NCBI GenBank assembly: GCA_977020255.1
Contig: CDROCS010000275.1
Span: 186,001 to 250,000, forward strand
Length of the DNA stretch: 64,000 bases
Direction: 5' to 3'
Source: Obrimoposthia wandeli
Taxonomy: Eukaryota
The notes beneath the pieces are model-generated. The model was not told the DNA's origin. It was given only the letters and a program-made list of their open reading frames with translations, and searched no databases. Made by a program: the position numbers and the translations under genes. Numbering within the stretch: the first letter of the stretch is position 1; each line of letters starts with the position of its first letter. Positions 52,575-54,905 of the stretch are shown here, in pieces.

Positions 52575-52960
52575 AAATATATACTTACGGGAATTCTCAG
52601 GCAAGTAAAGCCGAAGTTGTTCAAAAAGTACAAAGATGAAAAAAACGATATAACAGACAATTTGACTAGAGCAGTTAGATCACAAATGTCTGCAGTGAAG
52701 AGAATGACTGCGAATCATGGATACCATGTATCAATAGACAGATTTTACGATGGCGATGTTTTAGCGAGATTATGTAGAAACCAGACTACAAATAAAAAAT
52801 TAATCACAGCGATTACATATCTATGTTTCCAATTGACGGAAAGAACGAGCCAACCTCACGAAGTCAAACAAGGAATAAATGAAGCGATGTATTTGATCGA
52901 GAACGTATTGCAGCGACGAATCGACGAAAACGGAGGTTGGGCAAAATTAAGCGACTACGC
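52575..52960 (+). other. Bcl-2-like domain
   Basis: Helical region with a BH1-like segment (TNKKLITAITY) and a BH2 motif RRIDENGGWAKL. Confidence 0.65.
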
Positions 52961-53066
52961 TAAAACCATCGTGGAAATGAATGAAGACGATGAGGAACAA
53001 TGTCATGAGAATCGCCAAAGAGAAAATAAACAATACCGTCCGAAAGAAAGAAACAATCAACCAAAT

Positions 53067-54905
53067 ATGTCTACAACGATGATAATGATGATGTTAGTAA
53101 TGTTTATGGGAATGCAACAGGCATCAGGATTAGTAGCATATGACTGTAGCGCACCAAAGATAGGACAAAAGTATTCACTGCTTGACAGCAAAGACTGTCC
53201 AGAATCACAGCCATCGAAATTAGAAGTTAAAGGTGTTGAAAACTATTTCGTGTATCAGGATGTTGATAAAATACAGGTAGAAGTGAAAGAATGTTCTGTT
53301 CATTCAAGTTATCACGAATTCTATTGTGGTCATAGAAGTTTTATGTCGGAAATCACACCTACCACACCGTACAAACCACATAAGGTTTTTCCGAGAGATT
53401 GCGAAGACGCATTTCAAACAGGAACAATAGAAATAGACAAGAATTACAAACCTGATGTAAAAGTTGGAGTGAGACGATACGAAACAGTCACGAGAGTAGG
53501 AGAACGATGGGCGGATGGATCTTGTGACGGAGGAACAAAAAACGTGCGTGGTACCAAAGTAACAAAGTTAGTAATGGATGTAACTTACCAGATCGAATTA
53601 AAAACATGGACCGCCAATTTTGATAAAAAGACACAACGAATGATGAAGTATCCGGAATGTAGAATGACAGATACATCTTGTTTTACAGGTGAATCCACTA
53701 TCGTGTATCACGTGAATCCAAAACAATGCTCTTTAGTATTTTTGAAAGAGATTAGCTTTAATAAAATAAAAGGGTTCCTGTATAATAAAGATGGAAAGGG
53801 TTCCTGTATAATAAAGTTGGAGAAGGATTTCAAAATGAAACAAGACCAATTCCTATGACGTCGACACCTACACTACTAATGGCAACATCAACAGAGGAAG
53901 GATTGATATTTATTAAAAAGAGAAATAAAGCGCGATGTGGAATGACTGTTAGTACTACAAACTATCCTGGAATAGTTTTGTCCAGAGAATTAATAGCATT
54001 GGCAGAAACCAAGCTGAAACCTAGAGATATGCAGCTACACACGTATTTTAATAATAAAATTGATTTTTATTATCATAAAGGATTGATGCAAATGGAACAG
54101 TTATATCGGATGATGATCGAGAGAGATTGCCAGTTAAACAAAGAGATCGTAAGAACAAAGTTAGCATTAGCTATTACGAATCCAGACATGGTAGCACCAT
54201 TATTACCCTTAGATGAAGGAGTATTTGCTAAAACCATGGGAGAAGTATTGTATACTTACAAGTTTAATAAAGTAGAAGTACAGTTGAGAACAACAAACCG
54301 ATGTACGAGTGAATTGGCAGTAACGTATAATTTAAAAGAACTTTTTGTTGAATTAATCACGAGAATGATACTTCCAAAAGACACTCCAACTAAAGAAATC
54401 AGCTGCTCTAATATCAGATGACGAATGATCTATGGATAACTCTACCTGACCGAAAGCCAACAAAGACTCCAGAGATGATAAAAATGACGAATCTTAAAGG
54501 AAAAATGAAATTCGAAGCAGTAGAAAATATGGAGAATGCAGGTTTGTACAATGAAAAAGACTTAAAAGCAGCCTGGAACGAAATAATATTTTCCGTAAAA
54601 AGGGCCAGACTACTTACGGAGATAGTACATCGTGCATTACCACCAGGAGCTAGATATGCGAATTTTGATATGTTATTATCGCCAAGTCATTTCAAGGAAG
54701 AAGCGCATCAGACACTTAGAAAGATGTGGGGGAAATTCCTTGTTTTAGGACAGTTATTTTCAGGTATCATAGGTATTCATGTTATAATTAAATTTGTGCA
54801 GGTAATTATAGCCCAGGTGTTGTCTACGTATAGTTTATACAGGATAACCGGAATCACCTGGCAACTTATAATTGGATGTTTCCCATTTTTAGCGAAATAT
54901 CTAAT
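53067..54905 (+). pseudogene. Viral-type envelope glycoprotein, chuvirus/Mononegavirales-like (two frameshifts)
   Basis: Signal peptide MSTTMIMMMLVMFMGMQQASG then LVAYDC; Cys-rich ectodomain; GVFAKTMGEVLY...VEVQLRTTNRCTSELAVTY...ITRMI motif; C-terminal hydrophobic TM segments. Confidence 0.78.

Follow-up and report, generated by a model that had tools for sequence, protein, structure and literature searches.

A predicted Bcl-2 fold precedes the putative internal envelope signal peptide in a giant Gypsy-like element of Obrimoposthia wandeli

Burro/GYPSM1 elements are giant Gypsy-like LTR retrotransposons of planarians (Grohme 2018; Arkhipova and Yushenova 2019, PMC6431247). They are described as having BCL2-like, BIR and ubiquitin-like motifs, with Env in frame between BCL2 and the protease (PMC6431247). 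BURRO1 is described as abundant and active (PMC8532177), and the Burro1 IAP (B-IAP, BIR-RING) is reported to shield stem cells of planarians against apoptosis mediated by caspases (Lee 2026, as cited in PMC13465017). Elements of this type are already known, as are both of their apoptosis-related domains, the combination of Bcl-2-like domain, BIR and in-frame Env having been published in 2018-2019. The other system to be compared is the junction of hepatitis C core with E1, to which the flavivirus C-prM junction is comparable in arrangement. Hepatitis C core is anchored in the ER by the E1 signal after signal peptidase cleavage and is then released by signal peptide peptidase (PMC5402940).

The window, a stretch of 64,000 nucleotides of the Obrimoposthia wandeli genome, covers part of a giant Gypsy-like LTR element that is present in high copy number and follows the domain order of Burro/GYPSM1 (Table 1), the comparison being one of published domain order; the copy is broken. 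Judged by the element, the host is probably a planarian. As in Burro/GYPSM1, Gag with a CCHC knuckle, ubiquitin-like, BCL2-like and BIR domains and Pol belong to one frame, a mononegavirus-like Env lies in frame between BCL2 and the protease, and the copy number is very high. The order is Gag, ubiquitin-like, Bcl-2-like, Env, protease, BIR, RING, protease, RT, RNase H and integrase, which includes the Gag-CCHC, protease, RT, RNase H and integrase of a Gypsy-like LTR element; the ubiquitin-like match is weak here and in homologue P0001, and the BIR, broken in this copy, is intact in another (PF00653 E 2.5e-13). The internal region of Burro/GYPSM1 reaches up to 25 kb and the whole element more than 30 kb, and that of the present copy extends over at least 17 kb before it is cut off; the LTR of ~2 kb is unlike that of Burro/GYPSM1. 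For the MATH, ankyrin and dUTPase domains, which vary among Burro/GYPSM1 members, there is no Pfam match here, the published calls having used more sensitive methods, whereas the dual-specificity phosphatase 3' of the integrase has no mention in the accessible part of the Burro description (PMC6431247). A second, weaker repeat of the phosphatase is present, and the two together span 61934-62881. Like B-IAP, whose function was shown in another element, the BIR and RING belong to a polyprotein of this kind. They are flanked by two DTG aspartic protease domains (55276-57205), which could free the IAP module as a separate protein.

Table 1. Features of the element in the window (positions are those of the window)
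Feature	Position	Strand	Basis
5' LTR (TG...CA), tandem-repeat-rich middle	46497..48462	+	five other copies match from 46481-46497; ends read
Gag region, in broken pieces	49490..51000	+	capsid part inferred from position
CCHC zinc knuckle of Gag	50755-50799	+	PF00098 E 1.6e-6
Ubiquitin-like domain, weak	51686..51850	+	PF00240 E 0.0085, below cut-off
AT-hook-like basic motif RRGPGRPRK	52395..52421	+	sequence
Bcl-2-fold domain, six predicted helices, no helix 3	52572..52985	+	AlphaFold2 model
Charged/polar linker and n-region	52986..53075	+	sequence
Putative internal signal peptide of Env (h-region and c-region)	53076..53129	+	predicted cleavage after 53129
Env, Monjiviricetes-type fusion glycoprotein, three frame pieces	53130..55000	+	PF24664 E 7e-25, 1e-30, 2e-25
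First aspartic protease domain (DTG)	55276..55545	+	PF13650/PF13975
IAP module	55849..56806	+	BIR 55849-55998, PF00653 E 8e-5, broken here; RING 56675-56806, PF13920 E 9e-13
Second aspartic protease, RT, RNase H, integrase, with stops	56918..59761	+	Pfam
Dual-specificity phosphatase domain 3' of integrase, one stop inside	61934..62317	+	PF00782 E 9e-35

A primer-binding-site-like stretch, read from the sequence, begins at 48471, just past the 5' LTR, and 48-nt tandem arrays lie within and just after the LTR (47436-47950 and 48527-49090). The capsid part of the Gag region gave no match in a Pfam search. The basic motif RRGPGRPRK, which resembles an AT-hook, has a counterpart in P0001 and P0007-P0009 and is retained also in relatives that lack the Bcl-2 domain; among the 98-99 aligned copies, each of its residues is common to 90-98. 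The family is abundant, all 146 scored candidates, drawn from 15,959 first-look candidates, matching the junction at 92-100% protein identity. Since several stops and frame changes interrupt the present copy both upstream and downstream of the Bcl-2/Env junction, it cannot yield the polyprotein, and it has lost its own 3' end. In other copies, natural frames connect the zinc knuckle with Env over 1,324 residues and Env with the second protease over 1,038 residues; because these frames join the parts, the active element made one polyprotein. Open frames in the family reach up to 4,308 codons.

A 5.5-kb part of the window (42920-48453) is repeated downstream (contig ~251880-258030) at 96.5-100% identity, its first 1.4 kb, the part tested, occurring at full length at these two places only, and the second LTR, in the downstream repeat, is flanked on each side by CATT. 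A local tandem duplication together with a solo LTR would account for this arrangement. Elsewhere in the window, an innexin exon (E 1e-58; 41491-42516 on the reverse strand) lies between inverted repeats of 93% identity (41200-41474 and 44309-44578), and a hAT transposase remnant at 16108-17968 retains a BED finger and the dimerisation domain. An ORF cluster with endonuclease VII and integrase-chromodomain matches (L002:1042-9929) resembles a Polinton-like element.

Every part of the Bcl-2-to-Env junction is contained in a single open frame, 52296-53858 on the forward strand. The sequence-only reading had described there a helical domain ending in IDENGGW, a polar linker, the hydrophobic MIMMMLVMFMG segment, ASG and the glycoprotein start LVAYDC; the succession was found as described, at accurate coordinates, with IDENGGW at 52920, MIMMMLVMFMG at 53079, ASG at 53121 and LVAYDC at 53130-53147. 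The linker past the last helix has 29 residues, 7 of them acidic and 6 basic. The same order recurs in 12 sequences, mostly with ~15-25% domain identity to the window, and the frame is open over 52575-53190 in 87 of 103 aligned genomic copies, a share biased upward as these are the top-scoring matches. Together with the PF24664 match, this recurrence and the open frame in most copies argue that the arrangement is not due to chance. The Bcl-2-like domain forms the C-terminal end of a Gag precursor of ~1,300 residues.

The window sequence alone is borderline for the Bcl-2 family (PF00452 E 0.04), and a single-sequence phmmer search of the PDB gave no Bcl-2 protein among its five rows at E up to 10. 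Searching the whole library yielded 39 relatives. Eight of the nine domain sequences that were aligned match PF00452 with E no higher than 0.1 (best 2.5e-5), the Pfam scores seen lying under the family cut-off. The homologue profile compared with the PDB gave 117 matches, the best 60 of which all belong to the Bcl-2 family (best E 2.7e-4), and it matched the profile of the same genome's own Bcl-2 genes with a probability of 94% (E 1.3e-7). An AlphaFold2 model built from an 11-row alignment that included no cellular Bcl-2 (pLDDT 82, pTM 0.78) has a helical bundle around a central hydrophobic helix 5. When it was compared with 48,161 chains by VIA, the top 35 rows were all Bcl-2 folds (Z 9.4-5.3), the first other fold following at 5.1; the best match was Bcl-xL (Z 9.4, moderate for an all-helical domain; rmsd 3.1, 116 aligned), and KsBcl-2 reached Z 9.3. 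Foldseek ranks agree with VIA at weak E-values (0.007 for the PDB, 0.04 for a viral library), and a single-sequence model had a pLDDT of only 41, yet its top 20 VIA rows are Bcl-2 folds. We therefore accept that 52572-52985 adopts a Bcl-2 fold, albeit an atypical one; the Bcl-2-like character first proposed for it held, no other fold taking its place.

Searches for further relatives were less productive: those of the ESM Atlas gave no Bcl-2 lead, word-based protein searches found none, 3 and 1 proteins, and scans of metagenome and viral contigs found no relative. Among the matches listed (109 loci), there was no second, divergent Bcl-2-bearing family in the same genome, 105 loci falling in one cluster above 70%, with 1 frameshifted member and 3 not parsed. 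The genome also has fifteen host Bcl-2-family loci (L051-L065), of which L051 looks intronless, with no obvious tail anchor at its end, and L058 contains a BH3-like exon. Bok carries Lys at the BH1 Arg position; a Bok ancestry of the domain was considered and rejected, BOK being only 23rd in the structural ranking.

The domain resembles Bcl-2 proteins in its predicted fold over residues 14-143, in the GGW of its BH2-like motif and in a basic residue at the BH1 Arg position, the latter two retained at ~20% identity. It differs from them in lying inside a Gag polyprotein, in lacking the BH1 Gly and Trp and in having a loop in place of helix 3, which is not formed in the AlphaFold2 model; in Bcl-2 proteins, helices 2-5 make up the groove that takes BH3 peptides. 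In place of NWGR, the BH1-equivalent reads TNKK (52788), and among homologues Gly and Trp are each absent from 10 of 10 sequences, the Arg position being Lys or Arg in all ten. At the first Trp of BH2 the window has Arg, and 8 of the 9 other rows covering the position have Trp. The NWGR motif is described as central to BH3 recognition (PMC7719400); on the other hand, Deerpox DPV022 is reported to have no recognisable BH motifs and still to bind Bak, Bax and Bim (PMC11209288). A pro-survival activity of the domain is thus speculative. The proposal that Bcl-2 and IAP provide two anti-death arms stands as far as the presence of BIR, RING and Bcl-2 fold is concerned; the degenerate BH1 and the missing helix 3 weaken its functional half.

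The hydrophobic segment at the junction had been read as a tail anchor that may double as the envelope signal peptide. Several features strongly suggest that it is, in the first place, Env's own internal signal peptide. The PF24664 match begins at 53076, at model position 4 (E 7e-25), so that the segment corresponds to the N-terminal signal of Monjiviricetes-type glycoproteins. Its hydrophobic core of ~9-12 residues (~9 by the measure that gives 5-13 in relatives) is of signal-peptide size, lies in a stretch without charged residues that extends from 53052 up to the cleavage site and has Gly, Gln and Ser near its end. As an anchor, the core would be short and only moderately hydrophobic: the best 19-residue hydropathy is 1.57 in the window, 1.45 in one copy and <1.4 in another. 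Tail anchors of Bcl-2 proteins have ~17-20 hydrophobic residues. An anchor role is favoured by the natural 1,324-residue Gag-to-Env frame, in which the segment is the only one above the hydropathy threshold and no protease motif was found before it, and by the position of the BH2-like motif, 42-77 residues ahead of Env in all 12 sequences. By rule-based assessment, the short core, polar c-region and small residues at -3 and -1 are those of a signal peptidase I-type site: the window has A at -3 and G at -1, and small residues occupy both positions of the ASG/L-equivalent site in 29 of 33 relatives (42 proteins were examined, of which 5 had no Env start motif and 4 were too short upstream). Among copies, A and S are common to 100 of 100 and G to 94 of 100. 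A signal-peptidase-type site at ASG/L, as predicted from the sequence, is accordingly present. The role as Env signal was thus sustained and that of anchor became secondary, the segment being, unlike a terminal Bcl-2 tail anchor, a predicted cleavable signal.

Relatives without the Bcl-2 domain bear on the same point. Nine of them (151-890 upstream residues) have no Bcl-2 match and no GGW motif, although a host-derived Bcl-2 profile is insensitive and misses even the window's own domain; in P0007 and P0008, the AT-hook-like motif is only 97-118 residues from Env, compared with 224-243 in Bcl-2-bearing relatives, which leaves no room for the domain. Since all nine carry the same signal, the Env signal appears primary and any anchor role secondary. 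Of all rows, P0008 is also the one whose Env comes closest to that of the window (40% identity). In an unrooted Env tree of 22 rows, from which 15 were left out as too short, Bcl-2-less, signal-bearing elements fall on both sides of the best-supported split (100/99); the Bcl-2 label requires 3 changes, a number as low in 46-52 of 500 shuffles, and support elsewhere is poor, giving no order of gain and loss. In the Bcl-2-less P0027, P0028 and P0031, a different, unassigned sequence fills the place between Gag and the Env signal. This place looks like a general cargo position, and the adjacency of Bcl-2 and Env may reflect merely such a slot.

Selection was assessed in 101 sequences (100 copies and the window, after removal of one copy with a frameshift and of two loci that were duplicates or badly broken) by comparing variants shared by five or more copies with singletons. 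The singletons look neutral, whereas the shared variants are mostly synonymous. Between BH1 and BH2, nonsynonymous to synonymous changes are 2:22 among shared variants and 60:20 among singletons (p 4e-9), and over the whole fold 10:40 and 109:55. The linker (52962-53075; 1:11 against 28:5) is as constrained as the Bcl-2 domain; the signal gave 1:5 against 13:3 (p 0.011), linker and signal combined 2:16 against 41:8 (p 7e-8), and Env 54:101 against 184:69. A separate comparison agreed with these counts. In replicating lineages, purifying selection acted on the domain and the junction no less strongly than on Env, the constraint on the domain not being significantly stronger (p ~0.055, 101 sequences). 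The Bcl-2-fold domain is the last cytosolic domain ahead of Env, in frame with Gag and conserved by selection.

We propose that the Burro-type element makes one polyprotein, in which Gag-Ubl-AT-hook-Bcl-2 would be cytosolic. The signal very probably enters the ER membrane with its N-terminal side facing the cytosol and threads Env into the lumen, host signal peptidase would cut after ASG, and the C-terminal membrane segment of Env (~54733-54825 by hydropathy) most likely returns protease-BIR-RING-protease-Pol to the cytosol. By analogy with hepatitis C core-E1, where a cytosolic structural protein likewise ends in the next glycoprotein's signal peptide, cleavage would leave Gag-Ubl-AT-hook-Bcl-2 on the ER through the signal remnant, in a tail-anchor-like topology. 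That system has no Bcl-2 fold, a second cleavage removes its anchor, and the likeness is one of analogy, not homology. Of the original idea that cleavage leaves an ER-anchored Bcl-2 fold, the site remains, but the first tethered product would be Gag-Ubl-Bcl-2 and not a free Bcl-2 protein. Co-translational insertion at the ER would keep the domain away from mitochondria. Element proteases may then release Gag, the Bcl-2 fold staying on the membrane for at least part of its life, and the membrane-bound fold might, speculatively, complement the IAP module by damping death or stress signals of the host through a contact of a non-canonical kind. We give a probability of roughly 55% to an ER tether of the domain, transient or lasting, with a role in death or stress signalling. 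Its stronger form, one segment serving as Env signal and then as lasting ER tail anchor of a non-canonical pro-survival Bcl-2, is less likely than not.

The tether could instead be a by-product, with signal peptide peptidase or the element protease freeing a soluble Bcl-2-fold protein that acts in the cytosol, in the nucleus or at mitochondria, perhaps on immune or NF-kB-type signalling like poxviral A46/A52/B14/N1, whose Bcl-2 folds have functions of that kind. The degenerate BH1, the short core with Gly, Gln and Ser near its end and the adjoining AT-hook-like motif would suit such a protein, and A52, B14, N1L and A46 are among the fold matches; their Z of 5.3-6.2, against 9.4, places them, however, at the bottom of the Bcl-2 folds, and all 12 sequences keep the domain at a distance of 42-77 residues from Env. 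Hepatitis C core is freed in the same way (PMC5402940), and we consider this outcome doubtful though not negligible. Alternatively, the domain may have lost its death-regulating activity and now serve particle assembly: as a spacer of helices, or an adaptor resembling a matrix protein, at the end of a Gag anchored in the ER, it would bring capsids next to Env for budding, in the manner of anchored flavivirus and hepacivirus capsids. Its position at the end of the Gag precursor, the altered BH1 and helix 3 and the constraint shared with the linker are compatible with this; since nine relatives, including P0008, have the same Gag-signal-Env layout without the domain, and since the BH1 basic residue and BH2 GGW persist at ~20% identity, we think it unlikely.

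Two further explanations concern the segment itself. A Met 21 residues before the site (53067) is common to 94 of 97 copies and has similarly placed counterparts in several homologues, and other gypsy elements express env separately (PMC6431247); Env might then be produced chiefly from a transcript, spliced or internal, that begins at this Met, with an ordinary N-terminal signal and the Bcl-2 domain uncoupled from it. P0001, P0003 and P0018 have no Met at the signal start, and Pol follows in frame behind Env, so that the polyprotein must traverse the signal anyway, which makes this improbable. It is more improbable still that the segment is the tail anchor of a captured host Bcl-2 gene, later recruited as Env signal. 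In all 12 sequences that have it, the BH2-like GGW precedes the Env start motif by 42-77 residues, a spacing like that of cellular Bcl-2 tails, the value for Bcl-xL being ~45 residues from the BH2 Trp to the C-terminal end; but the segment aligns with the N-terminus of a viral glycoprotein model, and the 100/99 split of the unrooted Env tree has Bcl-2-less elements carrying this signal on either side.

A use of the Env signal peptide as anchor of the Bcl-2 domain was not found in the literature searched, although Grohme 2018, Lee 2026 and their supplements may discuss the junction. New here are the structural confirmation by model, the degenerate groove, the evidence of selection and the assignment of the segment as, very probably, Env's own signal. 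The topology proposed above predicts that the domain is located at the ER, that Env has a defined N-terminus and that the Gag precursor is anchored in the ER, the last of which would be unusual for a Gypsy element. The IAP of Burro1 is reported to protect planarian stem cells, so a second, selected Bcl-2 fold in a similar polyprotein is a natural next target. If the anchor were lasting and of dual use, a reverse-transcribing element would here carry a Bcl-2 of viral type that the design of the polyprotein fixes at the ER, and it would provide a second survival arm beside the IAP, helping the stem cells that carry the element to persist.
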